Below, piece by piece: positions 6,620 through 47,408 of a DNA stretch of 56,214 bases. The notes below the pieces were generated by a model. That model worked only from the letters and a program-made list of their open reading frames with translations. It ran no database searches and was not told the origin of the DNA. Numbering within the stretch: position 1 is the stretch's first letter; each line of letters opens with the position of its first letter. Both the position numbers and the translations under genes were made by a program. Origin of the DNA: Candidatus Woesearchaeota archaeon (GTDB lineage Archaea; Nanobdellota; Nanobdellia; Woesearchaeales; JBDRGA01); assembly GCA_043818175.1 (NCBI GenBank), contig JBDRGA010000046.1, forward strand, positions 1-56,214. Reading direction: 5' to 3'.

Positions 6620-6693
6620 CTTGTCTACTAGTATCTTAACGCACCAACATGTTTGAGCGAAATCTTTACATACTGAAATTAGTATACATTGCC

Positions 6694-7137
6694 ATGAACG
6701 AAGCCGAATTCTTCAAAATTGTGGATTACATCCTATTGAAAGGAGCGGAAGCCACGATGAATCTTACGAGTGATTTCAAAGCCGACTTCGTCGATATATT
6801 CGCGAAGAACGAGGATGAATTCGAAGAGCTGAAGCAATGGCTTCACACCCACGGAAAAGTCGTTCATTCCAAACCATCAGGGGATACTGTGAGACTTGAC
6901 AAACCACATTCCACACCCTATGGTCCTTTGCAGTACTTGAAGATAAGACCTTTCGACCCAAGCAAGCCATTTAGAGGAGCGCCTGACTTTGAGGTTGATT
7001 ATGAAAAAATGAAGACAGAGCATCCGGAACTGAAACAGATTCAGAGCCAACTTTACGAGATGCTTGAACTCAAAGGCGATGATGTTCTCGTTTATTTCCT
7101 GAAGCCGACCGTGAGTGAATTGTTTGACGAAAAATAA
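6694..7137 (+). CDS. Hypothetical protein (possible VOC/YecM-like fold)
   Basis: Open frame with protein-like composition. Start at 6694 is supported by a TATA-like TTTACATA about 29 nt upstream. The fold guess is weak. Confidence 0.6.
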   Translation: MNEAEFFKIVDYILLKGAEATMNLTSDFKADFVDIFAKNEDEFEELKQWLHTHGKVVHSKPSGDTVRLDKPHSTPYGPLQYLKIRPFDPSKPFRGAPDFEVDYEKMKTEHPELKQIQSQLYEMLELKGDDVLVYFLKPTVSELFDEK

Positions 7138-7144
7138 TAAAGAA

Positions 7145-7615
7145 TTAAGCTTGCTCCTCAACAGGAATACCATATTTCTCATGAATGATTAGCTTCAGTT
7201 CTTGAAGATGCGATTCTCCCACTTCTTCCGCAATTGCTTTCGCAAAGTACTCAGAAAGGTACTTGTTGCCATGTCCCTCTAGAATCTCACCAATGCATTC
7301 ACCACAAGGATGTCTTCCATTAACCAAATCATTCAGGCAGTCGCACGTAGCGCCTTCACCATGGCCTGGCGTTTTCTCGATACAGTATGTGCATGGTGTT
7401 TCCAAGCAACAGCGATACATGCTTTGAGGAAGCAGGTCCTTTACGATTCCATCGCGCATTTCGAGGTAGTTTTCTCTACGCGCATCCATTGGCATCATAT
7501 CCTGCATCTGATCGTGGAGAATGCCCATCATCCAAAATGGAGCTACGATTGATCCAACGAAGATGCCTAACAAAGCTACGGCAAGCAAGTGTCCTGATTT
7601 TGTATTCAAGTTCAT
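7145..7615 (-). CDS. Membrane-anchored Met/Cys-rich putative metal-binding protein
   Basis: N-terminal TM, MMGILHDQMQDMMPM, 8 Cys (CC, CxxC, CxC, CxxC); last gene of the copper cluster. Confidence 0.7.
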   Translation of the reverse strand: MNLNTKSGHLLAVALLGIFVGSIVAPFWMMGILHDQMQDMMPMDARRENYLEMRDGIVKDLLPQSMYRCCLETPCTYCIEKTPGHGEGATCDCLNDLVNGRHPCGECIGEILEGHGNKYLSEYFAKAIAEEVGESHLQELKLIIHEKYGIPVEEQA

Positions 7616-7627
7616 TTTTTCACCAAT

Positions 7628-8401
7628 TTATACAATCAAATAGTCCTTTGGAACACCTTCATTCAGAGAGTAGATGTGCCATGGTTCTGTTTTCCTCCCT
7701 GGCATGCCGGGAGTTCCAACAGGCATCCTTGGAAGAGCAATACCCTCAATTGCTGGCTGCTCATCAAGAAGTTTGTTCACTACATCTATTGGAACATGCC
7801 CTTCGACGACATATCCTCCAACTATACTGGTGTGGCAGCTCTCCATTGCGCTTGGTATTGAATACTTTTCCTTGATTGGTGCCATGTTTTCAGTCGGGAC
7901 AACCTTGACTTCAAATCCTTGTTTCTCCAGCTCGGCAACATAACCTACACAACACCCACATGAAGGTGATTTGTAGACCGTGACCGTCTTGTCTATTGCA
8001 GAAAATGAGCCAAACGAACGCTCCGTGAAGCTTTTGCCTGCCGCGTCCCACGCATTTGTTCCTCCATCCATATCATATACTGTAGTGTACCCCATTTTTT
8101 GCAAGGTTTGTGCCGCTTCTGCACTCATCGTTCCACTTCTACAATAGACCGCGATTGGTGTATTCTTATCCGTTGGAAGCAATGCTCTGTTTTCTTCAAG
8201 CGCATCGTATGCTATGAATGCATCAGTACCAACTATATGTTTGCCCTCCGGTGTGTGCGTGTCAATGACAAATACAGCTCTATCGCTTATTTTGGCTTCA
8301 AATTGGCCAGGGCTCAATGACTCAATTGTCGGAGTTCTTGGTGTGCACGCAACCAGTATCAATAGTGGCACCATGAGAAGCAGTGCTCTTTTCATTAGCA
8401 T
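7628..8401 (-). CDS. Lipoprotein: rhodanese domain fused to DUF411 (CopG-like) domain
   Basis: Lipobox LVAC; rhodanese YCRSGTMS...MDGGTNAW; DUF411 VYKSPSCGCC...SCHT...VEGHVP...MPVGTPGM. Confidence 0.85.
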   Translation of the reverse strand: MLMKRALLLMVPLLILVACTPRTPTIESLSPGQFEAKISDRAVFVIDTHTPEGKHIVGTDAFIAYDALEENRALLPTDKNTPIAVYCRSGTMSAEAAQTLQKMGYTTVYDMDGGTNAWDAAGKSFTERSFGSFSAIDKTVTVYKSPSCGCCVGYVAELEKQGFEVKVVPTENMAPIKEKYSIPSAMESCHTSIVGGYVVEGHVPIDVVNKLLDEQPAIEGIALPRMPVGTPGMPGRKTEPWHIYSLNEGVPKDYLIV

Positions 8402-8616
8402 CCGCCCACCATAACCGGTTGTGCTTCGGGCTGTTGCTGTGTGGTAGTTGTTCGCGGCGCAGTGGGTGCCACGTTTACAGAACCATCTGATGTGTCCTGC
8501 TTGATGTGGCTTATCTGCACTGCCTGCACCGTCGACACTACGACAAGGGCAAGTGCCACAATAAACAAGACGTATGTTACTATGTTTCTAGTTCCATTTG
8601 TTTCTTCTTTCTTCAT
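8395..8616 (-). CDS. Small membrane-anchored protein ending in MVGGC
   Basis: 73 aa: one TM, a Thr/Gln/Pro linker and C-terminal MVGGC. GGAGGT SD lies 7 nt upstream. Confidence 0.75.
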   Translation of the reverse strand: MKKEETNGTRNIVTYVLFIVALALVVVSTVQAVQISHIKQDTSDGSVNVAPTAPRTTTTQQQPEAQPVMVGGC

Positions 8617-8617
8617 T

Positions 8618-9274
8618 CTAACAACCTCCTACCATGCTTCCTGCTGTTTGTCCTTGTTCTATTCCTCTGTATTTGTTGCTCGCTACGTTCACGTATGAAG
8701 TTTCTATCCCTTGCTCTTCAAGGATTTTGGCTTTAGCTTGTATTTGAGTGGGGAAGAACAGCGCTTTCCATTTTCCTACTTCTTCAAGTATTTGAGCATC
8801 AGTATATTCCACGCCATGTTTTGTTATCAAGTATTTTGCCAAGCCTCGCATCGCGTAGCTATGCGCACACCCGCAAGCAGGCTCTCCATTCTCGAATATA
8901 ATTGAACGGGCACCGCAACAGTACTCACAGCTCATTCCGTTTTCCATGCGATATAGTATGTTGATGTACCTTTCTTTGTCCGCTCCTTCAAGTTTGACGC
9001 TTCTATCGATATTGCCCATTATCCGTATCGTAGCATCCGCCAGTTGCGGATCGTTGGGAGAAACATCGTCATAGTTCACTTGAAGTTCGTCTCCATATGT
9101 TGCTGGTGTGCCCTGCGGCACGATGCCCGTAAGCGTTGTTACCTGCTGCGCTACCACTCCTTGAGTTGCCTGACTTACTGCCGGCGCCACACTTTGAAGC
9201 GCGCTTGCATTGTAGCCGGCAAGAACAACTGTGATGAGCAGGACTGCAGCCGTGCTGTATTCTAGTGCATTCAT
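8618..9274 (-). CDS. Exported Cys-cluster protein ending in MVGGC
   Basis: N-terminal hydrophobic anchor, CEYCCG and CGCAHS motifs, C-terminal MVGGC. Start moved to the ATG at 9274 (GGAGG at 9282-9286) because 9319 lies inside the promoter. Confidence 0.8.
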   Translation of the reverse strand: MNALEYSTAAVLLITVVLAGYNASALQSVAPAVSQATQGVVAQQVTTLTGIVPQGTPATYGDELQVNYDDVSPNDPQLADATIRIMGNIDRSVKLEGADKERYINILYRMENGMSCEYCCGARSIIFENGEPACGCAHSYAMRGLAKYLITKHGVEYTDAQILEEVGKWKALFFPTQIQAKAKILEEQGIETSYVNVASNKYRGIEQGQTAGSMVGGC

Positions 9275-9310
9275 TCTTGTCCCTCCATGTATTTCATGCA
9301 ATTCACGGAT

Positions 9311-9349
9311 GTGAAACACCTTTAAGAAGTACCGGCGAAACTGGTTTCA
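9311..9349 (-). promoter_or_regulatory. Internal promoter/operator of the copper cluster
   Basis: Minus strand TGAAACCAGTTTCGccgGTACttcTTAAAGgtGTTTCAc; 28/39 identical to 13458-13496. Confidence 0.75.
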
Positions 9350-9352
9350 CAA

Positions 9353-11575
9353 TCAGATTCTCTTCGTCTTCAACAGCAACGAATTACTCACAACACTAAC
9401 AGAACTCAACGCCATTGCCGCGCCAGCGATGATGGGGCTCAACATCAGTTTGGGGTTGCCTGTTATGACATAAAGCACTCCTGCTGCTATTGGTATTCCC
9501 AACACATTGTAGAAGAACGCCCAGAAGAGATTCTGCTTTATCTTCGCCATTGTTGCTTTACTAAGTGCAATTGCTCGTGGAACGTCCCTTAAGTCATCCT
9601 TCATTAGCACTATGTCTCCTGTTTCCATCGCAACATCAGTTCCCGAACCCATTGCGATTCCAATGTCAGCCTGCGCCAGTGCGGGCGCGTCGTTAATTCC
9701 ATCTCCTACCATTGCTGTCGGCCCGTTTAATTGAAGACGCTTCACATTTTCCGCCTTGTCCTGGGGGAGCACGTCAGCAAACACATTTCCTTCCTTTATT
9801 CCAGCTTGCAAAGCTATTGCTTTTGCAGTTCGTTCGTTGTCTCCTGTAATCATGTAAACGTTAATTCCAAGGTCATGAAGTTTCTTAATCGCTTCTTTAG
9901 ATGTTGGCTTTAGTGTGTCAGCAACTGCAATTAACCCAATTAGTTTCCTTCCTTCAGCAAGAACCATCACTGTTTTGCCTTGTTCTTCCAGAGCACGTAT
10001 TTTTCCCAGAACATCTTTGAGTTCCACGCCTTGTTTCTTCATTAGGCGTTCATTTCCAAAATAGTACTCTTTCTTTCCCAGTTTCGCAATGATTCCATGA
10101 CCAGGAATTGCCTTGAACGAAGAAGCGTGAGTTATCTTCATTTTCTTTTCTTTTGCATGGTTCACAATTGCTTCAGCCAACGGATGTTCGCTTCCCTGTT
10201 CGATGCTTGCTGCTATTAAGAGCAAGTCATCTTCTTTTCCAGACACTGGAACCAAATCAGTTACCTTTGGTTTGCCATATGTTACAGTTCCTGTCTTGTC
10301 GAGCACGATGTTTTTCAGGCGGTGCGCAGTTTCAAGTGAATCACCACCTTTGATTAGTATTCCTTCCTTTGCTCCTTTGCCCGTGCCCACCATTATTGCT
10401 GTTGGTGTGGCAAGTCCTAATGCACAAGGACAAGCTATTACCAAAACTGCTACTGCTGCTATGAATCCAAGCCCAGTCTGTCCTGCCAAAGCCCACGCAA
10501 TCAAAGTCAGCACGGCAATCCCTAATACAATGGGAACAAAATAACTGCTTATCACGTCCGCAAAACGCTGTATTGGTGCTTTTCTTGACTGAGCATCCTC
10601 AACAAGTTTAACTATTCTGGCCAGAGTTGTGTTCGTGCCTACTTTTGTAGCCCTAAATTGTATGCTTCCGTGGGCATTGATCGTACCACCAATCACTTCA
10701 TTTCCAACATTCTTCTCTACGGGCATGCTCTCTCCTGTTATCATGCTTTCGTCGATGCTCGTATTACCTTTGATAATAATTCCATCAACAGGTATTTTTT
10801 CGCCCGGCTTCACTATTATGATGTCTCCTTGGCGTACTTCATCGACGGGGATGCGTGTCTCAGTGTTACCTCGGAGGACTAAAGCTTGTTTTGGTTGCAA
10901 ACCAACAAGTTTCTTTATTGCTTCTGATGTTCGTTGCTTTGCTCTGTGCTCGAGAACTTTTCCCAGTATAACAAGAGTGATAATAACTGCAGCTGCCTCG
11001 AAGTACTGTCCTAGTTCCATGATTTTTCCGCTTAATATTGTATATACGCTGAAAAAGTAAGCAGCACTCGTTCCCAACACTATTAGCGTGTCCATGTTGG
11101 CGCTCTTGTTTTTTAGAGCTGCCCATGCTCCTTTGTAGAATACACTTCCAACGTAGAACTGTACTGGTGTTGCAAGAATAAAAAGTATCCATGCAGCGTA
11201 GGGCATCGCGATTCCAGCAAAGAGAACGCTGTCCGACATCATGAACATTCCTATGATAAATGCAGGCACGCCAAAAAGAAGGCTTACTGTGAGTCTGTTC
11301 TTCAATGATGTGAAAGCTTCCTTGTCTGCTGCGCTTTTTGCTTCGTATGGATCTTTGCTGCTTGCATTCAGGATAACGTCGTATCCTTTGGAACGTATTG
11401 CTTTTACGAAATCGTCTTCCTTCGCATTATTTGGGTCAAAAGTTATGCTTGCTTTTTCTGTAGCGTAGTTGACGTTGGCATCAGTTACACCAGGAACCTT
11501 CTTCAGTGTTCTCGTAAGTAAGTTAGAGCAGCTTGCGCAGTGCATTCCTGTTATCTGCAATTCTTTTTTTGTCAT
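9353..11575 (-). CDS. copA: Cu(I)-translocating P1B-type ATPase
   Basis: [43 protein letters not shown], and YN...PI plus MALSS P1B-1 signatures. Confidence 0.95.
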
Positions 11576-11781
11576 TATTCCACTTTGTATCCTTCTGCCG
11601 TTATTGCTGTCTTTATAGTCTTCTCATTGACTTTACTTTCGTCATAACTTACAACCGCGAGGCCCTTTTGATGGCTTATGTCTACTTTGCCAATACCGTC
11701 AAGGTCAAGCAAGGCATCCCTTATCAGTTCCTCACAGCTTGAGCAATGCATTCCTTTTATCTTTATTGTTGAACTTTTCAT
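11575..11781 (-). CDS. copZ: Copper chaperone (HMA domain)
   Basis: 68 aa, GMHCSSC; stop overlaps the copA start. Confidence 0.9.
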
Positions 11782-13445
11782 TGTGACACCTTGAACTCAC
11801 CTATCTTGCTTCCCATGCTGCACGTGAACGCTACTGTTCCAGGCTCAGTCGGTGTGAACTTTAGCACACTGTTTCCTTGAGTTATTCTGTGCGCAACTCC
11901 GTATTTTGGCACGAGTATTGTGCTTGAGCATCCTCTTGGAACCACTTCCGCATTAATGTTCAGTTCAACAGGTACCCCAGTCGTCACATCAAATGTCCTA
12001 GGATTCCATCCTTGCTGATTAATTGTCATGTCGAGTTTTTGAACAGAACACTCAGCAAACTGAGGATCACACCCCGTCACTACTGGTGCTATCACTTCGG
12101 CTTTTTGCTGCACAGGTGCATCATTTGGCAGTACGGTTATACTCGCTCCGAGCGTGGTCATTGCCATTGGACAGCTGAATCTGAAAGTTCCTGCCTTAGT
12201 AGGTGTGAACTCTATCACTTTGACTGGACCTCTTGTGGCGTACGCTGTGATGTCAAGTCCGGGCACTACAACTACTTGCGCACATCCAGAAGCAGTATTA
12301 CCATCAATTTCCCACCTTACTGGCACTCCTTGCTTTACTGTGAATTGTGCTGGCTCATATTCAAGCCCGTTGATTTTCATCTTTATGGTTTGCAAGCCTT
12401 GTGTGACCACTGCTTGTGGTGCCGTAGATGTTCCTATGACATTTATTGGCGCTGTCGCAAGTGTTATCCCGTTATTCAAACTGAATATTCCCAATGTTAT
12501 AACTAGAACAGCACTTGCCTTTGCTACGTACTTGTAAACATTTCCTTTGGTAAAGCTCGTTAATGCACCTATTCCAAGCAGGCCTGGTAAGGTTCCTATG
12601 CTGAAAGCCAGCATTACTAATGCGCCTTGTATTGGATTGCCTAAGGTTAAGACATACAATTGTAGTGCCTGCGTGAACCCACACGGAAAGAAGAAACTCG
12701 TAGCACCAAGACCTGCAGCACCAATTGTGCTTGGTTTCTGACTCGACTCATATGCCTTGTGCGCGAATATTTTTGGCATCTTGAAGCTAAACCTGCTTAG
12801 GACTCGTATTCCAAGCAGTTGTAATCCTAGAATCACCATTGCAGCGCTAACAACAATTGTGATTATGCCTGTTACACCCATGCTGATTGAGATTACACCA
12901 CCAAGTAGTGCAAGTAATCCACCAAGAACGGTGTAGCTAACTATTCTTCCTGCGTTAAAGGCAAGGTTTGGTTTGAAACGCTGCATACCTGTAGCATTTG
13001 GAAACTTTGTTCTCCATCTGTTTGCAATTGCAAGTAACAATCCTCCTGTTACGGCCATGCATGTGCTGAACGCTGCTACAACACCTAGTCCAAGTGCCAG
13101 ACCAAAACTCACATTTTCAGTTATGCCTATGTTTGGAAGAATGTCAAACTGCTTCAAAAGCAAGTAAGCACCAAGAAGTACTATAATTATGCCTCCGAAC
13201 TCGGCTATCTCCCTTGAGCGTTTGCGTTTAGCATCTCCAATCTGTATTGTGTACTTTCCTTCTCCTAGAGCATTTTGCAGTTCTGTCGTTGTTATAGCGC
13301 GATTGCACCGCAGTTCAGCGGTTCCTCTGGAGTGGTCTACTTTAACTCGCTGCACTCCTCTTACTTTCCTGAACTTTCGTTCTATCAGGACTTCGCAGCT
13401 CGCGCAGGTCATTCCATTTATCTTGAGTGTTACTGGTTTTGCCAT
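11778..13445 (-). CDS. HMA + DsbD_2/TauE-like membrane domain + two cupredoxin-like domains
   Basis: GMTCASC; TM domain with FSTCMAVTGG and FFPCGFTQ; two repeats GC...F(S/T)C(P/S)M. Confidence 0.85.
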   Translation of the reverse strand: MAKPVTLKINGMTCASCEVLIERKFRKVRGVQRVKVDHSRGTAELRCNRAITTTELQNALGEGKYTIQIGDAKRKRSREIAEFGGIIIVLLGAYLLLKQFDILPNIGITENVSFGLALGLGVVAAFSTCMAVTGGLLLAIANRWRTKFPNATGMQRFKPNLAFNAGRIVSYTVLGGLLALLGGVISISMGVTGIITIVVSAAMVILGLQLLGIRVLSRFSFKMPKIFAHKAYESSQKPSTIGAAGLGATSFFFPCGFTQALQLYVLTLGNPIQGALVMLAFSIGTLPGLLGIGALTSFTKGNVYKYVAKASAVLVITLGIFSLNNGITLATAPINVIGTSTAPQAVVTQGLQTIKMKINGLEYEPAQFTVKQGVPVRWEIDGNTASGCAQVVVVPGLDITAYATRGPVKVIEFTPTKAGTFRFSCPMAMTTLGASITVLPNDAPVQQKAEVIAPVVTGCDPQFAECSVQKLDMTINQQGWNPRTFDVTTGVPVELNINAEVVPRGCSSTILVPKYGVAHRITQGNSVLKFTPTEPGTVAFTCSMGSKIGEFKVSQ

Positions 13446-13457
13446 GATGTTTGAACT

Positions 13458-13496
13458 ATGAAACGGCTTTATAAGGTACTGATGAAACCAGTTTCA
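13458..13496 (-). promoter_or_regulatory. Main promoter/operator of the copper cluster
   Basis: Perfect palindrome TGAAAC-CA-GTTTCA (13483-13496), TATA CTTATAAA (13468-13475) 30 nt before the ATG at 13445, and a second half-site GTTTCA. Confidence 0.8.
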
Positions 13497-13533
13497 AGGG
13501 TAGATTTTTAAGCAGAAGCATGATTATTGTTGT

Positions 13534-14025
13534 GTGGAAGCATCACAAACTAGATGGATTGGGTACGCATTGCTTGCAGTAGGCGTATTGCTAATAATGA
13601 TTCTGGCCGTAGTAAAAGTAAACACGGACAGAGAGGGTGCGTTCATGTGTGAACTTGTTGAAGCTTCACCTGATTTGTCCATGACTGACTGTCCCGCACA
13701 TAATAGCAGCACATCGTGGGTTGTACTTGTCGGTTTTGGCTTTGCGGCTTTGGTGCTTGCCGCGGGAGCATATTTGGCGTTCGTACAAAACATGCAGGGC
13801 ACTTCTAAACCTGCGACGAAGCCAAAGGACATCAAGCTTGATTCAGAGGAATCCAAGGTTGTCGAAGCAATTAAGCAGGCAGGCGGAAGCGTATTCCAAG
13901 GAGACATCGTAAGAGAAACGGAGTTCTCGAAGGTCAAGGTAACAAGAATTCTTGATAGACTTGAGACAAAACAGGTCATCGAAAGAAAGCGTAGAGGCAT
14001 GACCAATCTTGTCGTGCTGAAATAG
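13534..14025 (+). CDS. Membrane-anchored winged-helix (MarR-like) transcription regulator
   Basis: Two TMs flanking the loop MCELVEASPDLSMTDCPAH; C-terminal wHTH FQGDIVRETEFSKVKVTRILDRLETKQVIERKRRGMTN; divergent from the copper cluster. Confidence 0.8.
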   Translation: MEASQTRWIGYALLAVGVLLIMILAVVKVNTDREGAFMCELVEASPDLSMTDCPAHNSSTSWVVLVGFGFAALVLAAGAYLAFVQNMQGTSKPATKPKDIKLDSEESKVVEAIKQAGGSVFQGDIVRETEFSKVKVTRILDRLETKQVIERKRRGMTNLVVLK

Positions 14026-14074: not shown

Positions 14075-14806
14075 ATGAAAGCACTACTTGTAATAATGAT
14101 AGTCGCGGGCCTTATGCTCGCTGCCTGCACCGCAGGCAACACAAGCCAGCCCAAACCGGCTGACGATAACAATGCAGCCAACCAAGAAACTGCTCCATCT
14201 GGTGATTCTGCAGGAACCACGGATGATTCGATGAAGAACGAGAAAATCGCGCCTGCAGATGACGCAAGCGCTGAGTGGAAGTCTTTGGTAGGCAAGAATG
14301 TTGGTCTATCATTTATGGTGAAGTATGAAGTTCAATCAAATGCAAATGGTCAGGCAACAAATGCTGAAATGACTCAATACTCAAAATCCGGAAAGTCCCG
14401 TGTTGACAGCATGGCACAGGGCATGGAGTCAAGAGCATACATGATGGACAACAAGGTTTATTCATGCATTAACCAAGGTACGTGGATGTGTTTCGCTGCT
14501 GACTCTCAGCAGGATAGTGGCGCGGACTTGACCAAGTACAACGATGATTCCAAAGCGTATCAGGTAACTGCAATGCCTTCGAGAAACATTGCAGGAAAAA
14601 CGGCAAAGTGCTTCCAGATTATTGTCGAGAGCGCAAAAGCACAGTATTGCTTGAGTCCGGAGGGCGTACCTTTGTACATCATGAGCGAAGGTTCTGAAGG
14701 AGGCGTTTCATACACCTCAACCATGACAGCAAAGGAATACAGTACTTCAGTGAGTGATTTAGTATTCGAATTGCCAGCAGAGCCGACAGCGATGCCCACG
14801 TATTGA
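14075..14806 (+). CDS. Lipoprotein, paralog of 25975-26709 (possible LolA/DUF4412-like fold)
   Basis: Lipobox LAAC, low-complexity linker, four Cys, FELPAE near the C-terminus; GAGGTG SD. Confidence 0.7.
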   Translation: MKALLVIMIVAGLMLAACTAGNTSQPKPADDNNAANQETAPSGDSAGTTDDSMKNEKIAPADDASAEWKSLVGKNVGLSFMVKYEVQSNANGQATNAEMTQYSKSGKSRVDSMAQGMESRAYMMDNKVYSCINQGTWMCFAADSQQDSGADLTKYNDDSKAYQVTAMPSRNIAGKTAKCFQIIVESAKAQYCLSPEGVPLYIMSEGSEGGVSYTSTMTAKEYSTSVSDLVFELPAEPTAMPTY

Positions 14807-14848: not shown

Positions 14849-15556
14849 TCAAGTATTATTGGATTGAGTCATGTCCGCAAGAACATCTTCCAAGGTTTGT
14901 GATTGTTGTGTTGGTGATTCGTCAAACACTTGACGAAGTGGTCGCGTCACCCGTTCAGCAAACCATGCAATTGTCGATATCGGAGGTGATAAGACACTTG
15001 TTGGAGCAAAGCTGGCTTTGCCAGGATTGTGGTTGTGGTAGCGCACCCGCCCCCATATCTGAACTGTGTAAAGCAAAGAGGGTACTGCTGGAGCTGCCGC
15101 TCCAAACATTCTTGCCCACCAGGGGGGAGAAAAATGATCAACCCCCGCATAAATTGCTACACCAATAGCAGCAGCCTTTGTCAAGGCGAAAGTGTCTCCA
15201 ATGTATACTGCATGACGCGACAACTTTTGAGGGTTTTCCTCACCCCAGATAATCTTACTTGCTTCTTCTGAAATACGAGGCGCTAGCCCACTTATTTGAG
15301 TGGCGAAGCATGCGTATTTAGCAACGCTACCTCTGGTCCAATTAATTCCACCATCTTCGGTCTTATAATCTCGTGCAAACTCTCTTGCTTTTTCAACTGT
15401 AATAAACCCAACAGAACCAGGCGTGTCCATGTCTGTGACTTCATTTCGCAGACGGGTTTCAATCCGGTTACCCCATCCTGTTCGTCTAGCTCGTTCCCCT
15501 ATTCTATGGAAATAATCCTTTACGGGCCTTCCATTAACGTAATCCCCAAACGCCAT
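14849..15556 (-). CDS. Hypothetical membrane protein
   Basis: 235-aa ORF with hydrophobic segments; shares a TTTTAAA box (15579-15585) with the divergent JAMM gene. Confidence 0.6.
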   Translation of the reverse strand: MAFGDYVNGRPVKDYFHRIGERARRTGWGNRIETRLRNEVTDMDTPGSVGFITVEKAREFARDYKTEDGGINWTRGSVAKYACFATQISGLAPRISEEASKIIWGEENPQKLSRHAVYIGDTFALTKAAAIGVAIYAGVDHFSPPWWARMFGAAAPAVPSLLYTVQIWGRVRYHNHNPGKASFAPTSVLSPPISTIAWFAERVTRPLRQVFDESPTQQSQTLEDVLADMTQSNNT

Positions 15557-15606
15557 GCCTCAGAGTTCATATGAGAGCTTTTAAAGGTGAGGGTTTTTCT
15601 TGCAGT

Positions 15607-15981
15607 ATGATTGTCAATATAGATTTGGGTGTTGTTGAGACTCTAGTAGACCTCGCCAGTCAAGCCCATCCGAAAGAAACTGTGATGATTCTTGAGGGTT
15701 CGAACAGGAAGGGTGAGATTAAGGTTACTGGAGTTCTTTTTCAACAGTATTCAGCAAACGAGAACAGCACGCATTTCAATCTAGATTTACCAATGGGCAC
15801 TAAATCCGTTGGAACGTTTCATTCTCATCCCGGACCAAGCAACAGGCCTTCTCAGGCAGATTTGAAGCTGTTTGAGAAGTTCGGTCTAGTGCACTTCATA
15901 GCGCATTACCCGTACAGAATTGAAGATTTCGCGTGCTATGATAAGATGGGCACACGAGTCCCTTTTTCTGTCTCGAACTAA
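15607..15981 (+). CDS. JAB/MPN+ (JAMM) metalloprotease
   Basis: HPKET...GTFHSHPGPSNRPSQADL matches E-HSHP-x7-S-xx-D. Start at 15607 is 28 nt after the TATA box. Confidence 0.9.
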   Translation: MIVNIDLGVVETLVDLASQAHPKETVMILEGSNRKGEIKVTGVLFQQYSANENSTHFNLDLPMGTKSVGTFHSHPGPSNRPSQADLKLFEKFGLVHFIAHYPYRIEDFACYDKMGTRVPFSVSN

Positions 15982-18900
15982 CCTTCGTGATGATGCGTTG
16001 GCTTCTTGGGCCTGCGCCATGCTGCAAATATGATGGCCAGGACAACTATGAATGCCAGTCCTATGAAGTATGGAATCGCACTTCCACCACCTTGATCTTC
16101 CTTGGTGGATTCTGCTGCTTTACCCGCTAGGTTCTGCTCGTCAGTCGCCGCAACTTTAGCCTCATCTTGAGCAGGCAAATCCTCAGCCACTTCACTCACT
16201 TCTGGCTCGATTGCTGGTTCCGCACTTGCCTTCTCAGCTCCAATTGCGAAAGTGCTGAACCCAGGTGTGTTGAAGCGGTATGTTTCTTCTGTTATTTTCG
16301 TGGGTTTGAACATCTGCCATTCTCCAGCTGAAAGCCTGAAAAGCCTGACGTTTCCTGCAAGAATACCATTTTCTTCCAACCAGGATTCGGGAACCCTCAC
16401 TTCTATCCACGCGTTTCCGACCGTTCCCATGTTCTTGAGAGTTATTTCCAAGTACTGGTAGACATGTCCATTAGGTGCTTCCTTAACGCTACTTGGTTTG
16501 CCTGAAGCATACTGCTGCACTAATACTTCGCCCTTGCTGACAGCATTCTCTGGCTTGAATCCAACTCCGACAACGCTAATTTTCGGGTCGTCAATCTTCA
16601 TACTTATAGCCTGTCCTGCGGGTACCGCGCCCCAGAACTGTACTCTGTTTGGATTTGTGTTTCTGGGTGCGCTACTACCGCCACTGCCACTGCTACTTGT
16701 TGTACAGCTTTGAGAGCTACTTTCTGAAGTTGAGCCACCACCATAACATGTTCTTGTCCTTGTCCTGGTCTGTGAGCTTGACGAACAGGTGCTCCAGTCA
16801 CTCCAGTCACTCCATCCTCCATCGCATGCAGAAGGCGTTATGTTCTTGGTGTTATTCACTGTTACTGTGCTGTTATGATTTGCACCATCATCAAGTGACG
16901 TTATAACGTATGAATATGCCATTTCTGAAGTCATAGTAGTATCCTGATACCATGCATTTGTTGTATTGGCAAGGGCTGTATTTGTATTGCTTGTATTCAG
17001 ACTGCTTATGTTTGTGGTTCGGAAAACATAATATGTCATTGCCAAATCCGCATTTCCATCGACGTCAAGCGTTACTGCTGTCCATGTAATGTTTACGGCA
17101 CCATTCGTTTTTGTGGAACCATTGGCAGTTGTGGGCGAGCGTGGCATTAATGTATCGTCAGCGGTCGCATTATAACTGCTTGATACGATGCTCTTGTTCT
17201 CGTTTGAAGACGCATCGAGACTTGTTATAGCATACCAATACGTCGTGCTGTCTGTTGTTGTATTATCCTCAAATGTTGTGTTAGTGAGCGCAGCAATTGC
17301 TGTCAGTGCTGCTGCGCTAGTTATTGCTGTAGTTGACCGGTACACCTTGTAGCTTGCTGCATTCGCGTCAGCAGTCCAGTTCAGCTCTATGTTACCATCA
17401 CTGTCAGAATCATTTACACCTACTTGTGTTAGCGTTGGAGCTGTTGTTGGGGGTGTAGTATCTATAACTGTAAAGTAATACAACCCGCTGAAGTTAGCTG
17501 CGTTGCTTAAATTATCTTCAACCTGAATTGTCCAGTTATGTGTTGTACCACTGACGAACCCTCCAACAGTGAAGTTGGTTGCTGTGTTGTTGCCTGCTGT
17601 TAATCCTGTGGCATTGGCAACTCCATCAAGGAACAACGTGTAGTTCAATATCGTATCAATTCCATCATAACTTGTAAAGTTGAACGTTACGATGGTATCT
17701 GACGCGTTTGAGTTGTTACTTGGGGCATTTAGTGTCGATACCACTGGTACTGTCGCATCTATCTTCAATACGAGGACGCTGCTGTTGGCAGCATTACCAT
17801 TGTTGTCCGTGGCTTGAACTTCAATATCGTGACTTCCATCCTCTAGTATTGATGTCACGGCAACCGTTGGCGTTCCATTGAGTGCAGTGCCAGAGGCAAC
17901 TGATACACCATCTACATAGATAACATAACTGAGGTTCGTGTCCATGTTATCTGTGAGGGTGAAGTTGATTTCAGGCGTGACATCATTTGTCCAGGAATCA
18001 TTTGCAGGCGACGTTATATTACTGGTTGGCACAGTTGTATCTACGTGAATTACAACAGACCCGTTTGCCAGGTTTGAAGCACTGTCAGCAGCTTCTATCA
18101 CTACAGTGTACGTTCCATCCAAAAAAACTCCCAATGTAACACTCTTCACAGTATTGTTTGTTGCGTTTCCCGTGCCGCCAGCAACACCATTTACATAAAG
18201 GGTGTAGTTGATGACTGTGTCTGTTTCATCAGTTAAAATAAAGTTGATGTCTGGCGTCGTATCCGTAGTCCAAGAATCATTTGCAGGCGAGGTAATTACA
18301 CTCGTTGGTGCAGTTACGTCTACTGTCAATACTATTGCTGTGCTGTTCACGCTGTGTAGTGCACTGTCAGTGGCCTGCACGAGCACAGTATACACACCCG
18401 CGCCCAGAACGCTGAGTTCTACGACTGTTGGTGTGTTGTTCAGTGCACTACCTGTCTGATTTGCAGAGCCATCTACATACACAACATAACTTAAGTTGGT
18501 ATCCAGACTATCCGTGAGCGTAAATGTGATTGCTGGAGTTGTATTTGATGTGGATGTGTTATCTGCAGGAGATGTTATCACACTGGTTGGATTTGCAGTA
18601 TCTACGTGAATAACCAAGGCAGTACTATTGAACATGTTTCCTGCTTCGTCCTCTGCCTGCATTATTAGAGTGTACGTTCCTTCTGGTGTTGCACCCATCG
18701 TAAGCGAAGAAACTGTGTTGTTGCTTACATTACCAGTAAGGTTTGCTACACCATCAACGAATAGCGTGTAGTTTAGCATGGAATCGTACACGTCAGTTAT
18801 CGTGAAGTTAATGCTCGGCGTCGTGTTCGTAGTCCAAGAATCGTTACCAGGAAAGGTAATATTGCTAGTTGGGTAACCCGTGTCGACATTAACTGTCCAC

Positions 18901-19229
18901 GTAGCACTGGTTGAGGAATTCTCCAAGTCTGTACAATTTACATTCCAGAGTCTGGTTCCCTGGGACAAACTTGCATTAGCCGTGATTATCGTGCTCGTAT
19001 CATTGAACGTTGTAGCGTTGATACCGAAACCTACGTTATCTACCAAGAGTTCACATGAGAAGTTTCCGCTGCTATTGCTTATCGCGGTGAACGTGAAGCC
19101 AGGAGTTGCACTGGGCACCCACAGATTATCAGCTGGCGATGCTGGTGCTACACTGCTAATCCCTGCCCAAACTGTATTCGCAGCGAGAATTGAAAAAACT
19201 ATTGCCAGAATTATATTACTAGTTCTCAC
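15978..19229 (-). CDS. Large cell-surface glycoprotein: Ig-like repeats, FN3-like domains, TSP1-like motif, PGF-pre-PGF domain, C-terminal TM
   Basis: Signal peptide; about 6 repeats of ITSPANDSWT.D.TP.INFT.TD..D..LNYT.YVDG; WSDWSDWSTC...TRTRTRTC; VYQYLEI...TPGFSTFAIG; TM plus basic tail; more than 40 N-x-S/T sequons. Confidence 0.9.
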   Translation of the reverse strand: MRTSNIILAIVFSILAANTVWAGISSVAPASPADNLWVPSATPGFTFTAISNSSGNFSCELLVDNVGFGINATTFNDTSTIITANASLSQGTRLWNVNCTDLENSSTSATWTVNVDTGYPTSNITFPGNDSWTTNTTPSINFTITDVYDSMLNYTLFVDGVANLTGNVSNNTVSSLTMGATPEGTYTLIMQAEDEAGNMFNSTALVIHVDTANPTSVITSPADNTSTSNTTPAITFTLTDSLDTNLSYVVYVDGSANQTGSALNNTPTVVELSVLGAGVYTVLVQATDSALHSVNSTAIVLTVDVTAPTSVITSPANDSWTTDTTPDINFILTDETDTVINYTLYVNGVAGGTGNATNNTVKSVTLGVFLDGTYTVVIEAADSASNLANGSVVIHVDTTVPTSNITSPANDSWTNDVTPEINFTLTDNMDTNLSYVIYVDGVSVASGTALNGTPTVAVTSILEDGSHDIEVQATDNNGNAANSSVLVLKIDATVPVVSTLNAPSNNSNASDTIVTFNFTSYDGIDTILNYTLFLDGVANATGLTAGNNTATNFTVGGFVSGTTHNWTIQVEDNLSNAANFSGLYYFTVIDTTPPTTAPTLTQVGVNDSDSDGNIELNWTADANAASYKVYRSTTAITSAAALTAIAALTNTTFEDNTTTDSTTYWYAITSLDASSNENKSIVSSSYNATADDTLMPRSPTTANGSTKTNGAVNITWTAVTLDVDGNADLAMTYYVFRTTNISSLNTSNTNTALANTTNAWYQDTTMTSEMAYSYVITSLDDGANHNSTVTVNNTKNITPSACDGGWSDWSDWSTCSSSSQTRTRTRTCYGGGSTSESSSQSCTTSSSGSGGSSAPRNTNPNRVQFWGAVPAGQAISMKIDDPKISVVGVGFKPENAVSKGEVLVQQYASGKPSSVKEAPNGHVYQYLEITLKNMGTVGNAWIEVRVPESWLEENGILAGNVRLFRLSAGEWQMFKPTKITEETYRFNTPGFSTFAIGAEKASAEPAIEPEVSEVAEDLPAQDEAKVAATDEQNLAGKAAESTKEDQGGGSAIPYFIGLAFIVVLAIIFAAWRRPKKPTHHHEG

Positions 19230-20234: not shown

Positions 20235-21341
20235 TCAGCGGACACTAACATACCCACCCCGCACTCCTTTCTTGCTCAGAACTATCTGCCACAAGTGGTT
20301 CTTTCTCGCCCTGAACGAGCCCGCACAACTCAATAAATAGTATTCCCACATTTTGTAGAAACGTTCTGAATAGTTTTTCTTCAATGAGGGCCAGTTTTTC
20401 TTGAAGTTGGAGTACCATGCCATCAATGTATTATTGTAATAGATTCCAAAATTGTGAAGGTCTTCAACGACGAACTTTCCTTCTACGTTCTGCATGATTT
20501 GCTTTAGGGAAGGCAAATGTGAATTGGGGAATATGTACTTGTTCATCCACGCGTCTGTATTTACAACTGAATTGTTGCCTCCTATGGTGTGCAAGAGGAA
20601 GATTCCATCGTCCTTTAGGCATCTTTCTGCAACTTCAAAGTATGTCTTGTAATTTTTGTGACCTACGTGTTCGATCATTCCTATTGAGACAATCGCGTCA
20701 AACTTTCCAGTAACTTTCCTATAATCCTGCAAGAGTATCTTCACTGGAAGTTTTTTGCATCTTTCCTTAGCATAAGCTGCCTGCTCTTTGGATATCGTTA
20801 CACCTAATACCTCAACGCCGTATTTTCTTGCTGCGTATTCTGCAAATCCACCCCAACCACATCCAATGTCCAAAACTCGCATCCCTTTTTTCAGCTGCAT
20901 TTTCCTGCAGCAAAGATCTAGTTTTGCTTCCTGCGCTTTGTCAAGCGTTTTTGCATCTTTCCAATAACCACAGCTATAATTTAATCCTTTGTCGAGCATT
21001 TTTTCGTACAAATCATTTCCAAGGTCGTAATGTTCCTTACCTACCTTTCTCGCGCCTTTCAGTGTTTGACTGTTGAAGATTTTTGACTTAAGGGCGAGAA
21101 AGAGCAGGTTGAACGTCTTAACTTTCTTGTCAAGTTGTGCATTCAGTATTTTGTAAAAGAATACGTCCAGTTTCTTTGCTGTCCACCATCCATCCATGTA
21201 GCTTTCTCCAAGACCCATTGAACCCTCAGAAAGAACCCTATCGTAGAATCTTTCATCAAGGACCTGCAAATCATGGTCGCGCTTGCCATTTATCTTCACG
21301 TCTGCCAAATCAAGAAGTTCCTGTACTTTTTGGATGTTCAT
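20235..21341 (-). CDS. cfa: Cyclopropane-fatty-acyl-phospholipid synthase
   Basis: GSMGLGESYMDGWW, HYDLGNDLY, YSCGYW, VLDIGCGWGG, SIGMIEHVG, KYIFP and MWEYYLLSCAGSF. Confidence 0.92.
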   Translation of the reverse strand: MNIQKVQELLDLADVKINGKRDHDLQVLDERFYDRVLSEGSMGLGESYMDGWWTAKKLDVFFYKILNAQLDKKVKTFNLLFLALKSKIFNSQTLKGARKVGKEHYDLGNDLYEKMLDKGLNYSCGYWKDAKTLDKAQEAKLDLCCRKMQLKKGMRVLDIGCGWGGFAEYAARKYGVEVLGVTISKEQAAYAKERCKKLPVKILLQDYRKVTGKFDAIVSIGMIEHVGHKNYKTYFEVAERCLKDDGIFLLHTIGGNNSVVNTDAWMNKYIFPNSHLPSLKQIMQNVEGKFVVEDLHNFGIYYNNTLMAWYSNFKKNWPSLKKNYSERFYKMWEYYLLSCAGSFRARKNHLWQIVLSKKGVRGGYVSVR

Positions 21342-22855: not shown

Positions 22856-23788
22856 GGTCGGATGGTGTATTTGATATTCCAATAATGTTTCAGAAGGCGT
22901 TACTTTAATTTCTTCTTCCCTTCATTCGAAAGGTAATTCTTGCTGGATATTGTGCTTCTTCCAAGTCGTTTTTCGACGCTTTCCCTGGCTTCTCCGGCTG
23001 CCTCACCTCCCTCTTTGGCCGAGTCCTTGCATTCTGGAAACCCTTGAGAATCACGTTCTCTTGTAATTTCAGTAGTTGTCTTTTCACCCAGCATCGTGAA
23101 TATCAATTCGAAGTCAGTCATGTGGTCACGAAGATTCTGGTTCTTCCTTTTCAGTCGTTTGAATTCCTTGTACTCGCCAACAGTCTTGCCAAACGTCGCC
23201 TTTGATATCTCGTTAGTTAAAATCGCAAATTCGTTCTCTGTTTTTATATCTCTGTCTTTCCACTCGTCAGTCAATTCCTGCCTGATTGCTATACCGCGCA
23301 GTCTCTTGTCAATCCAACCTTTGGGATATCCCTTAAGTTCATAGTATTCTTTAATCCTGTCTTGACCCACTTCTGGATTTTCAATTTCTTCAATCCGCTC
23401 GTATCCCACTTGCGCCAGCCATTGCTTGAATGGTTCGGCTCTCTTTGAAGGAATGGATTGTATTATTCTGAAAATCTGTTTGGTACTGCCCGCCAAAGTC
23501 CTCCGTTGCTTTCCTGTTTCTGTAGGCATGTCTACATGGGGACAATTTGTCCCTAGGTAACTTCCGAGTTCTTCATCCCGCTTACGAAGTTTCTTCAGGT
23601 AATCTGTAGGATTTGTACTGTCTGTCAAAACCGCTATGATGTCAACAATCGAAAAATACCATTCTCCATTGTACCAAGCTCTCCGTATTCTCCTGTTCTG
23701 GAACACAACCAGCTTGTTCTTTTCGTCCATGAAATTGGCAAGGCCTTGACGTTTATATGCTTTCAGGGAGGTTGTCCAGTGCACACAA
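22856..23788. mobile_element. 933-bp inserted cassette carrying only a BRO-N gene, bounded by att-like direct repeats
   Basis: Flanked by the 57-bp gene-end duplication; no recombinase inside. Confidence 0.55.
22900..23730 (-). CDS. BRO-N domain protein (phage antirepressor-like)
   Basis: IRRAWYNGEWYFSIVDII...PSKRAEPFKQWLAQVG. Start at 23730 is supported by a TATA box at 23751-23758. Confidence 0.85.
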   Translation of the reverse strand: MDEKNKLVVFQNRRIRRAWYNGEWYFSIVDIIAVLTDSTNPTDYLKKLRKRDEELGSYLGTNCPHVDMPTETGKQRRTLAGSTKQIFRIIQSIPSKRAEPFKQWLAQVGYERIEEIENPEVGQDRIKEYYELKGYPKGWIDKRLRGIAIRQELTDEWKDRDIKTENEFAILTNEISKATFGKTVGEYKEFKRLKRKNQNLRDHMTDFELIFTMLGEKTTTEITRERDSQGFPECKDSAKEGGEAAGEARESVEKRLGRSTISSKNYLSNEGKKKLK

Positions 23789-37947: not shown

Positions 37948-39029
37948 CTAAGGCAGCCAGCTCTTCTCGTCCTTTAGTTTCTCTGGAAGGTAAGTATCGA
38001 TAACGTAATTCAGACCCCAAGCAGCGAGTGCTTGTTGTTCTGCCCTTACCTTCATTTTCATGAGTTTTTCTATCGCATTTTCCCATTCCTTGTGGTGCTG
38101 TATGAACGGGTCGTCTTGATTCCATCCTTGATTCTCTTGATATCCACTTCCTTAAGAGGATGTGTCGGTAGTTTGTACTTGATGATGTCATCAGGGGTAA
38201 CCCCAAGGAATTTTGCATTGGGAACGCAGAAGTACTGGTTGATGTGCGCTGCATTACCAGATCCTACTTTGAACGTCCTGTAAATGTTGAGGAATCCGTA
38301 TGGGTCTCCGTCCGTAAATACGTACACAGGGAGTTTCATCTCATCGCTCAGCCTTCTGATGAATCGCCTACATGCTCTTGTTGGAACGCCCCCCATGCTA
38401 ACCAAGATGCAATTGGATTTCTTCCAGTAATTATGCTTTACGAGACGTTGGAACATACCCGCTGTTTCAATTGCAAGAATGAACTTGGCTTTCGTTTCAA
38501 ACGTTAATTCCTCTACACTTGAAGGTATTGAATATGCACCTGAGCCGAATTTTGTGCAGTCTATCCTTACTTCCTTTCCTGTTTCCGGGTCTTTATCTAT
38601 TACTATCAAAGCACCAGCTATATCTCCCCCTTTCTCCTCAGGAATAAAACCCAACTGCTCTCTGTTCACACCAAACATAGCCTCAACGTCATCCATTACT
38701 GTGTCGGATTCGGGTTGTTCGTTGAAGCGTGCCTCTCCCCAGTTTTTAGAAACGTAATATGCTTCCCTCTTTGTAGCTATATCGTTCGTCTCAACAAGTT
38801 GCTTGCTCAAACCCATCATTCGCAATGTTTGCGCGAATGTCTTAACTGTAGAAGCTGTTAGTGTTCTTTTCTTTTCGCCTTGTCCCAGTTGAAAGTAACC
38901 ACCTTTCTCGTTGTACGTTACATTGCTAAGGCTTCTTATGGGAGTGCTTATGCTGGGGCTTTTATTCTTCTTGATACTCTCGTAGATGAGCTTGGACGTA
39001 TCCTTGATTTTCTTTACAACATCACTCAT
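37948..39029 (-). CDS. top6A: DNA topoisomerase VI subunit A, interrupted by a 1-base frameshift near 38114
   Basis: TKREAYY (catalytic Tyr), AIETAGMF and FTDGDPYG. The conserved tail DPF...RAEQQALAAWGL.YV...YLPEKL continues in another frame to a stop at 37948. Start overlaps the top6B stop. Confidence 0.92.
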
Positions 39030-47312: not shown

Positions 47313-47408
47313 TTGACCACCTGAGAGTAATTTGGAATGGAGAATGGTCATGCGTTTTTAAGGTTTTCCCGTGGAAACCCTTTTATATAGAATAGACGCA
47401 TAAGCATC

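Follow-up and report, generated by a model that had tools for sequence, protein, structure and literature searches.

Several described systems resemble parts of the locus considered here, a set of seven genes (g1–g7) on a 56-kb stretch of DNA from a Candidatus Woesearchaeota archaeon (contig JBDRGA010000046.1; hereafter "the window" means this whole stretch). CupA is a Cu(I) chaperone of the cupredoxin fold that has a binuclear site and works on the cytoplasmic face, and CopG is a thioredoxin-like protein with a tetranuclear copper cluster, linked to copA and cus genes (PMC7558416). The copper-induced Scs system contains the DsbD-like protein ScsB (PMC10907172), while in SoxY the cysteine sits on a swinging arm (PMC5336275). 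CopA, CopZ and CopG-like proteins, all encoded here, are already known. The families of g4, g5 and g7, the C-terminal MVGGC tail of g4 and g5, the transmembrane (TM) regulator with its operator, and exofacial CupA-type domains on a DsbD_2 core are not described in the libraries and literature that we searched. MVGGC was found in no biological paper and the HMA–DsbD_2–cupredoxin architecture was described in none. The literature naming copper, CopA and the DPANN archaea (Diapherotrites, Parvarchaeota, Aenigmarchaeota, Nanoarchaeota and Nanohaloarchaeota) consisted, among the matches listed and as judged by title and abstract, of metagenome surveys or unrelated genome papers.

On balance, and with moderate confidence, we read these genes as a copper-responsive (or copper- and thiol-responsive) envelope regulon, in which two operons under one regulator would couple Cu(I) efflux to the capture and relay of the metal by tethered thiolate sites. 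What we observed, and what carries this reading, is the gene content, the conservation of motifs and of gene order, an operator common to both operons, and the ligand sets of CupA and CopG.

Two operons and a shared palindromic operator

The genes g1–g7 all lie on the minus strand between positions 7145 and 13445 (Table 1). The initial annotation had described seven co-oriented, tightly coupled genes, and all seven open reading frames (ORFs) were indeed found at this location. Neighboring genes overlap by 4 nucleotides (nt; g1/g2), 1 nt (g2/g3) or 7 nt (g5/g6), or are separated by 1 nt (g4/g5) or 12 nt (g6/g7). The only real gap among the seven, ≈78 nt between copA (g3) and g4, contains the second of two operators, with operon 1 (g1–copZ–copA) on one side and operon 2 (g4–g5–g6–g7) on the other. 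The unit is larger than previously described; the regulator gene and the operators had been missed. For g4, the mechanically listed ORF spans 8618–9319, and the ATG at 9274, which is the start in the database copy, was adopted here.

Table 1. Features of the copper locus in the window.
Feature	Positions	Strand	Description
Regulator gene	13534..14025	+	Membrane-spanning winged helix-turn-helix protein, divergent from g1; DUF7343 match and hydropathy
Operator 1	13483..13496		Perfect palindrome TGAAACCAGTTTCA, between the divergent regulator and g1 starts
g1	11778..13445	-	555 residues; HMA, DsbD_2 and two Cupredoxin_1 stretches, all above Pfam cut-offs
g2	11575..11781	-	68 residues; CopZ-like HMA metallochaperone
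g3	9353..11575	-	740 residues; P1B-1 Cu(I)-exporting ATPase CopA
Operator 2	9336..9349		TGAAACCAGTTTCG on the minus strand, 13/14 positions; between copA stop and g4 start
g4	8618..9274	-	218 residues; N-terminal membrane anchor, Cys-motif domain, C-terminal MVGGC
g5	8395..8616	-	73 residues; one TM helix, linker, MVGGC end
g6	7628..8401	-	257 residues; lipobox LVAC, rhodanese and DUF411/CopG domains
g7	7145..7615	-	156 residues; one TM helix, exactly 8 Cys

The operator core is a 14-bp palindrome, TGAAAC-NN-GTTTCA, present at two sites in the window, one before each operon. It forms the core of the longest inverted repeat of the region, which pairs 13483–13512 with 9320–9349. The first site is perfect and the second has one mismatch; no other match with at most one mismatch occurs in the 56 kb. 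Operator 1 is flanked by the TATA-like sequences TTTATAA (13467–13475) and TTTTTAAG (13503–13510), and operator 2 is followed ≈7 nt further on by the TATA-like CTTCTTAAAGG, with GGAGGG preceding the ATG at 9274. Putative TATA elements would lie in this way a few bases downstream of each operator.

The divergent regulator gene encodes a protein that matches Pfam DUF7343 at 49.9 bits (cut-off 27.6) and MarR_2 at 26.5 bits, just below the cut-off of 27. Two TM helices are predicted by hydropathy, with an outer loop between them that carries C39 and C53 (the latter in a CPAH motif), followed by a cytoplasmic winged helix-turn-helix (wHTH) domain of the DUF7343/MarR type. In 24 homologs the loop cysteines are 88% and 100% conserved and are the sole conserved residues of the loop, and the wHTH domain is well conserved. 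The adjacency of gene and operator suggests that this protein binds the palindrome (TGAAACNNGTTTCA).

When one genome per species was scanned, 385 genomes proved to have relatives of g4, and 80 of the loci (1.05 Mb, almost all from DPANN archaea) were analyzed. The core GAAACNNGTTTC has 60 copies in these loci, compared to ≈1 expected, with the consensus TGAAACTAGTTTCAcc. For 48 of the 60 copies, g4 is the next ORF downstream; 46 of them lie upstream of its listed start by about −2 to 153 nt, and two by nearly 400 nt. Other copies precede g1, a CopZ–TM protein, DUF411, the HCPLC protein described below, a CPHC thioredoxin-like lipoprotein or a DoxX-like protein. In three loci (L014, L038 and L058), operator-preceded genes encode a CPHC thioredoxin-like lipoprotein, a DoxX-like membrane protein and an LCPCCG-motif protein, which suggests a wider regulon mixing copper and thiol-redox functions.

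We considered the possibility that a copZA operon had simply landed beside an unrelated DPANN surface-protein operon, with no function in common. The seven-gene order is rare, with g7 in 4 and full-length g1 in 5 of the 80 loci, and the g4/g5 core often has neither CopA nor g1 in its flanks. However, the link of the distal genes to copper genes drawn in the initial annotation holds, in that the same operator stands before both operons in the window and, in other genomes, before g4, before DUF411 and before HMA, CopZ or g1 genes. Furthermore, CopA is strongly over-represented near g4, and DUF411, a known copper family, lies inside the distal operon. Mere juxtaposition is thus very improbable indeed.

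Gene neighborhoods in DPANN archaea and CPR bacteria

The arrangement around g4 is well conserved. A homolog of the DUF7343 regulator is found in 61 of the 80 loci, at a median distance of 178 nt upstream of g4. Directly after g4 comes a small ORF ending in MVGGC in 77 of the 80 g4 copies that have downstream sequence, which is too consistent to be due to chance, and two such ORFs follow in 19; in one locus, g4 and the small ORF both end in MVGDC. DUF411 follows g4/g5 in 52 of the loci, and a membrane protein with an invariant AHCPLCT motif (the HCPLC protein) is present in 50. The conserved core thus consists of the regulator, the operator, g4 and one or two small membrane-anchored MVGGC proteins, usually followed by DUF411. 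The initial annotation had called the cluster elaborate for a streamlined archaeon; with g4 relatives in the 385 species-representative genomes, its core is no oddity.

Full-length CopA was found in the flanks of 31 of the 80 loci (mean available flank 12.4 kb), in 27 of these on the same strand as g4. By our own estimate, a gene picked at random from a ≈1-Mb genome would have copA within ≈12 kb in only a few percent of cases. A contig from a bacterium of the Candidate Phyla Radiation (CPR) provides a second line of synteny. This contig (L086; ERZ27237544 k141_140702) carries, in order, a DsbA-like protein, a 183-residue Cys membrane protein, DUF411, g7, g1 and CopA, amid bacterial neighbors: an extracytoplasmic function sigma factor, a polynucleotide-phosphorylase-like protein (RNase_PH/KH/S1) and a peptidase M23. 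Its g1 has one CupA-like domain, and no g4, g5 or palindrome was found on the contig. The order DUF411/g7/g1/CopA implies that part of the system is common to CPR bacteria and DPANN archaea. The initial annotation had allowed that its distal genes might not be syntenic with copA in other genomes, an objection that fails because of the CopA genes near g4, the shared operator and the gene order in the CPR contig.

The seven genes are therefore not a single conserved unit but a composite of two modules. One is DPANN-wide and comprises the regulator, the operator, g4, g5 and usually DUF411; the other consists of DUF411–g7 with g1, CopZ and CopA, and is found in both DPANN and CPR. In all eight contexts seen, the CPR bacterium included, g7 directly follows DUF411.

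Further conserved membrane families of unknown function occur downstream of DUF411 in many loci (L001/L008 and L002 among them), with the invariant AHCPLCT motif, with FCxIC and a C-terminal ECCKxW, or with SWQICHNVC. A cytoplasmic helical protein with WCISKHLL and an exofacial protein with NTHSVDL...GHHxSG are found there as well. None of these five families is present in the window.

Predicted metal and thiol sites of the encoded proteins

The domain assignments given earlier for g1, g2, g3 and g6 were upheld by Pfam and NCBIfam; at permissive thresholds (E up to 10), these libraries gave no family match for g4, g5 or g7. In g1, an HMA domain (GMTCASC) is followed by one extra TM helix, a 6-TM DsbD_2 core (106.9 bits in Pfam) and two CupA-like domains. 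The two TM cysteines pointed out previously, C129 (FSTCM) and C255 (FPCGF), are present, one in each half of the core, and both are invariant in 25 homologs. Hydropathy and the positive-inside pattern, analyzed partly by hand, predict seven TM helices, with the N-terminus and the HMA domain inside and the CupA-like domains outside. The architecture is common, with 1781 matches in DPANN and CPR, where the only annotation is "sulfite exporter TauE/SafE".

The C-terminal domains of g1 match CupA (PDB entries 2mry and 4f2e, E = 1e-8) and the metal-binding N-terminal domain of CopA (4f2f, E = 2e-6), with the ligands aligned. Domain 1 has the full C...CxMxM ligand set (C388...C425-P-M427-A-M429), all four residues of which align with the CupA ligands and are invariant in the homologs. 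Domain 2 retains only C506...C542-S-M544, the second Met being absent. Among the 25 homologs, each of the CupA-like ligands, the HMA CxxC residues and the TM cysteines shows either invariance or a conservation of at least 90%. Because of this alignment and conservation, the C-terminal domains appear to be Cu(I) sites. The His-Cys-His-Met ligand set of type-1 blue copper proteins is not found, the ligand positions being occupied by Cys and Met only, with no His. The name "cupredoxin" given to these domains earlier thus fits the fold, but the sites are, to judge from their ligands, of the CupA Cu(I) type rather than blue-copper redox centers. Delivery on the cytoplasmic face to a cupredoxin-type CopA N-terminus, as by CupA, does not match this locus, where the domains are predicted to lie outside and the CopA N-terminus is an HMA domain.

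The core of g1 also raises the question of whether copper is the cargo at all. In a thiol-disulfide repair system of the Scs/Dsb type, the exofacial Cys proteins would be redox enzymes or carriers, the MVGGC cysteine a redox-active arm, and g1 an exporter of reducing equivalents like DsbD/CcdA, with copper acting as the stressor. The DsbD_2 core with its two invariant TM cysteines fits such a system, as do the regulator's only conserved sensor residues, which are two cysteines, the existence of an FKBP–g4 fusion, and genes for Thioredoxin_3-like, DsbA/Thioredoxin_4-like, CPHC-lipoprotein and DoxX-like proteins in or beside the regulon elsewhere, some of them preceded by the operator. The copper-induced Scs system with its DsbD-like ScsB provides a precedent (PMC10907172). 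However, g1 is flanked by metal-binding HMA and CupA-type domains rather than by the thioredoxin-like or immunoglobulin (Ig)-like domains of DsbD and ScsB; neither the cluster genes nor the flanking ORFs that were scanned include a redox partner of the thioredoxin fold, and the CopG-like domain is the only thioredoxin-fold protein in the window. Met/His-rich stretches in the g7 linker and in many g5-type proteins (e.g., EIMNYEMHG and DEMMARMHPD) look typical of exofacial Cu(I) sites and point to Cu(I) ligation. In addition, g1 seldom adjoins the core. We consider thiol repair doubtful, although it is the main alternative. The related proposal in the initial annotation, that the DsbD_2 protein feeds electrons to the distal proteins, survives as one of two readings of g1, but cannot be general, because full-length g1 is so rarely near g4.

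Operon 1 continues with two proteins of familiar type. The g2 product is a single HMA domain of ≈70 residues with the motif GMHCSSC (Pfam HMA, 61.8 bits); it matches the NCBIfam CopZ models, yet falls below their equivalog cut-offs (58.9 vs. 91). The g3 product scores 659.3 bits against TIGR01511 (cut-off 397) and 687 against TIGR01525 (cut-off 346), and has 8 TM helices judging from its hydropathy peaks. Its motifs include GMHCASC at residue 10 in an N-terminal HMA domain, TGE, CPC at 382, DKTGT at 426, GDGIND, YN at 689 and MALSS at 721. With its full-length model match and CPC/YN/MxxSS signature, g3 qualifies by sequence as a P1B-1 Cu/Ag ATPase. This signature also bears on whether another thiophilic metal (Hg, Ag, Cd or As/Sb) could be the cargo, with g1 importing or exporting it by means of a Cys pair, like MerT, and the tails resembling the C-terminal cysteines of MerA. 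MerA has a C-terminal cysteine tail, to which the MVGGC tails are analogous; the HMA domains give matches of similar quality to CopZ models and to those of MerP, MerA and MerTP; and several neighboring membrane proteins in related loci have TM Cys pairs in HCPLC, CHNVC and FCxIC motifs. On the other hand, no MerA, MerB or ArsC is present, the ATPase signature is that for Cu/Ag, and the CupA-type and CopG-type sites are copper sites in characterized proteins. A different metal is accordingly quite improbable as the cargo.

The g4 family comprises at least 1887 database clusters, none of them named and none with a Pfam domain, nearly all from DPANN archaea; an exhaustive profile search yielded 297 clusters at 50% identity. 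Database relatives are 55–70% identical to the window protein, and the nearest relatives of g4, like those of g7, are labeled Nanoarchaeota or Woesearchaeota. Besides the N-terminal membrane anchor, behind which the domain is predicted to face outward, the invariant features are the motifs SCEYCCGA-x11-ACGCAHS and GKWKxLFFP and the C-terminal MVGGC-COOH. The [M/Q]VGGC end is retained even in distant members and in fusions, such as those of P0438, P0501 and P0450 to an FKBP-type isomerase or to membrane domains with CPVC-type Cys pairs, which keep MVGGC. An AlphaFold2 model of g4 (predicted local distance difference test score, pLDDT, 90.3) is mostly helical, with a small knuckle around the cysteines, and found no fold match in the PDB (Foldseek, best E = 2.9); nor did the family profile match any PDB sequence.

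The g5 product has the same MVGGC-COOH end as g4, preceded by an N-terminal TM anchor and a low-complexity linker, and phmmer found relatives among 29 ORFs of the fetched loci. The tail-only proteins that follow g4 (L005–L084) fall into subtypes: short ones with AGQAASAYSGMVGGC, ones with GWTENEIMNYEMHGTIPAR and ones with ETYDEMMARMHPDQV. Many of them also have a cytoplasmic N-terminal CC motif (e.g., MDCCENK or MSDCCKTKG); together with the tail, this could allow them to bind soft metals on both sides of the membrane. Processing of the MVGGC tail, whether by a sortase, by prenylation or in a ubiquitin-like manner, was considered and rejected by reasoning: these proteins are exofacial, their motif is not followed by a TM helix, and enzymes of these kinds are not syntenic.

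In g6, a lipoprotein, a rhodanese domain (48.5 bits; cut-off 22.2) is fused to DUF411 (81.5 bits; cut-off 27). The rhodanese has a six-residue active-site loop, CRSGTM (in CRSGTMS), with the catalytic Cys. The DUF411 domain aligns with CopG (PDB 6wis, E = 4e-20) over SCGCC (CxCC), SCHT and MPVGTPGMP (MPxGxPGM), so that the earlier equation of DUF411 with CopG is borne out by the conserved CxCC and Met motifs. The g7 product has a TM anchor, a Met/His-rich juxtamembrane linker and a domain predicted to face outward, with eight invariant Cys, two invariant His and one nearly invariant His (CC..C..C...H...C.C...H.C..C...H). Its family contains 538 clusters, none named and none with a Pfam domain. 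The AlphaFold2 model has a pLDDT of 75.7, low over the Cys region, and neither a family-profile sequence search nor Foldseek, for which the model was poor over the Cys region, found a match in the PDB.

The rhodanese suggests yet another possible cargo. SoxY has an Ig-like beta-sandwich fold, ends in GGCGG and has SoxZ as its partner. The tail of g4 and g5, a Cys on a flexible Gly-rich C-terminal arm, recalls the swinging arm of SoxY (PMC5336275) and might carry sulfane sulfur loaded by the rhodanese, e.g., for sulfide or polysulfide detoxification or for the precipitation of copper sulfide. The active-type rhodanese fused to DUF411 in g6, which is found as a separate neighboring gene in 14 of the 80 loci, would suit such a relay. 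Most loci, however, have no rhodanese, and neither the window nor the loci showed any Sox, Dsr, TusA or sulfide-oxidizing genes. The mostly helical g4 model, which has no PDB fold match, does not have the Ig-like fold of SoxY, and the strongest neighbors are copper proteins. Sulfur transfer is thus quite improbable.

Outside the copper locus, a flanking lipoprotein (14075–14806), two ORFs (6649–7137 and 14849–15556) and a NUDIX gene are syntenic in no related locus and were excluded as members of the system. At 15571–19229, a 1083-residue Big_13/Y_Y_Y surface protein adjoins a Prok-JAB protein, neither of them syntenic with the copper cluster. Other features of the window include a CMAS-type cyclopropane-fatty-acyl-phospholipid synthase (20235–21341, minus strand; Pfam, 307 bits), which in an archaeal genome is of interest for a lipid-scavenging DPANN member because the enzyme modifies bacterial-type lipids, and a SurA-N and PpiC-type peptidyl-prolyl isomerase (45999–47351, minus strand), a bacterial periplasmic chaperone architecture in an archaeon. 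A Bro-N domain protein (22900–23784, minus strand) and a HerA/Zot-like ATPase (47409–48707, plus strand) may be remnants of viruses or mobile elements. The window also carries genes for NOG1 and topoisomerase VI, which mark the genome as archaeal; the mechanically listed ORFs of topoisomerase VI subunits A and B (38070–40683, minus strand) overlap by ≈80 nt, and the listed TTG start of subunit A is probably too far upstream.

A possible copper relay and its described counterparts

In our scheme, we infer which protein binds the operator, which signal induces expression, that g4, g5 and g7 bind metal, in what order it is handed on, and in which direction and with what cargo g1 works. The DUF7343 wHTH protein would sense the outside through its two-Cys loop and bind TGAAAC-NN-GTTTCA beside the TATA boxes of both operons. 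Operon 1 would clear cytoplasmic Cu(I), which family membership suggests is passed from CopZ to CopA. With reactive sites on each side of the membrane (the HMA CxxC inside, the DsbD_2 Cys pair, and two CupA-type Cu(I) sites outside), g1 might either send reducing equivalents outward, keeping exofacial thiolates reduced, or pass on Cu(I) itself. Operon 2 would set four membrane-tethered Cys-rich proteins on the outer face, where the flexible Met-Val-Gly-Gly-Cys tail of g4 and g5 could act as a swinging arm that takes up Cu(I) and delivers it to an acceptor, possibly the Cys5-His site of g4, the CxCC cluster of CopG type in g6 or the Cys8-His3 domain in g7. At these sites the metal might be buffered and, by analogy with what has been proposed for CopG, redox-converted, and the fused rhodanese of g6 would add a reactive cysteine as a sulfane carrier or reductant.

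Several points weigh against this scheme. The outward orientation of the CupA-like domains of g1 is a prediction from hydropathy and the positive-inside rule, and the same fold acts on the cytoplasmic side in Streptococcus pneumoniae. No characterized homolog was found for g4, g5, g7, g1 or the regulator, and metal binding by these proteins is deduced from their residues. CopA is absent from the available flanks of 49 of the 80 loci and full-length g1 from those of 75, so the g4/g5 core does not need either of them in cis. Elsewhere, the regulon has thioredoxin/DsbA-like and DoxX-like proteins among its members, and an FKBP domain is fused to one distant g4 relative; a function in thiol redox or folding suits these as well as a metal relay does. 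Finally, some distant g4 relatives end in QQVGGC, and this replacement of the tail Met by Gln weakens the case for a strict Met-Cys Cu(I) site.

That the tail proteins represent a new type of carrier is a real possibility. In the specific form that we put forward tentatively, g4 and the tail-only g5 proteins would be a new class of membrane-tethered carriers, whose swinging arm, the invariant MVGGC, would ferry Cu(I), sulfane sulfur or electrons from one exofacial Cys-cluster protein to another. The system would be controlled through the palindrome by a one-component sensor with a two-Cys TM module and a wHTH domain. If this is true, the carriers form a DPANN-wide envelope system that has no described counterpart. 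Most conserved genes of unknown function in the tiny DPANN genomes are unexplained; here, such genes become a regulon, present in 385 species-level genomes, with an operator and a candidate sensor-regulator. Three unannotated families are brought out, those of g4, g7 and the small g5-type proteins, all open to direct tests. The locus also suggests that CupA-type Cu(I) sites may serve outside the cell, that a link to copper may exist for DsbD_2 proteins now annotated as sulfite exporters, and that g7 may be a fixed partner of CopG, both in DPANN archaea and in one CPR bacterium or more.

Compared with known CopZ/CopA efflux systems, g2 and g3 have the expected sequence features (HMA CxxC; CPC, DKTGT, YN and MxxSS), but the pair here stands behind an HMA–DsbD_2–CupA-like protein and has its operator in common with an operon of unknown exofacial proteins. 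The g1 domains align with CupA and the N-terminal domain of CopA from Streptococcus pneumoniae, domain 1 with all four ligands; they differ in being arranged in tandem on a DsbD_2 core, in their predicted location outside, and in the missing second Met of domain 2. Like CopG of Gram-negative cop/cus clusters (6wis), g6 keeps CxCC, SCHT and MPxGxPGM and is linked to copA (PMC7558416), but here the protein is a lipoprotein, in an archaeon that has no periplasm, and carries a fused rhodanese domain; moreover, the gene that comes after DUF411 is always that for g7 or for the HCPLC membrane protein. PCYCGC proteins (PF13798) occupy the position after g4/g5 in Aenigmatarchaeota loci, with a Cys/His spacing that faintly recalls g7. 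However, profile similarity of g4 or g7 to PCYCGC is not significant, and both were rejected as relatives of that family: there was no Pfam match at E up to 10, the hhalign probabilities were 0.2% and 1.7%, and no homology among g4, g7 and PCYCGC was found by BLASTP, HMM search or hhalign.

As in ScsABCD, a DsbD-superfamily membrane protein (the counterpart of ScsB) is copper-linked and accompanied by exofacial Cys proteins (PMC10907172). In the window, however, the thioredoxin-fold partners ScsC and ScsD are missing, the end domains of g1 are metal-binding, and the regulator and operator are unrelated to those of Scs. The closest parallel to the tail itself is the reactive Cys on a flexible, Gly-containing C-terminal arm in SoxY and in the Cys tails of MerA and thioredoxin reductase, an arm that could move a ligand from site to site. 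These proteins bear no sequence or fold relation to g4 and g5, in which MVGGC stands at the very C-terminus and is also carried by a mini-protein that consists of little more than the anchored tail.

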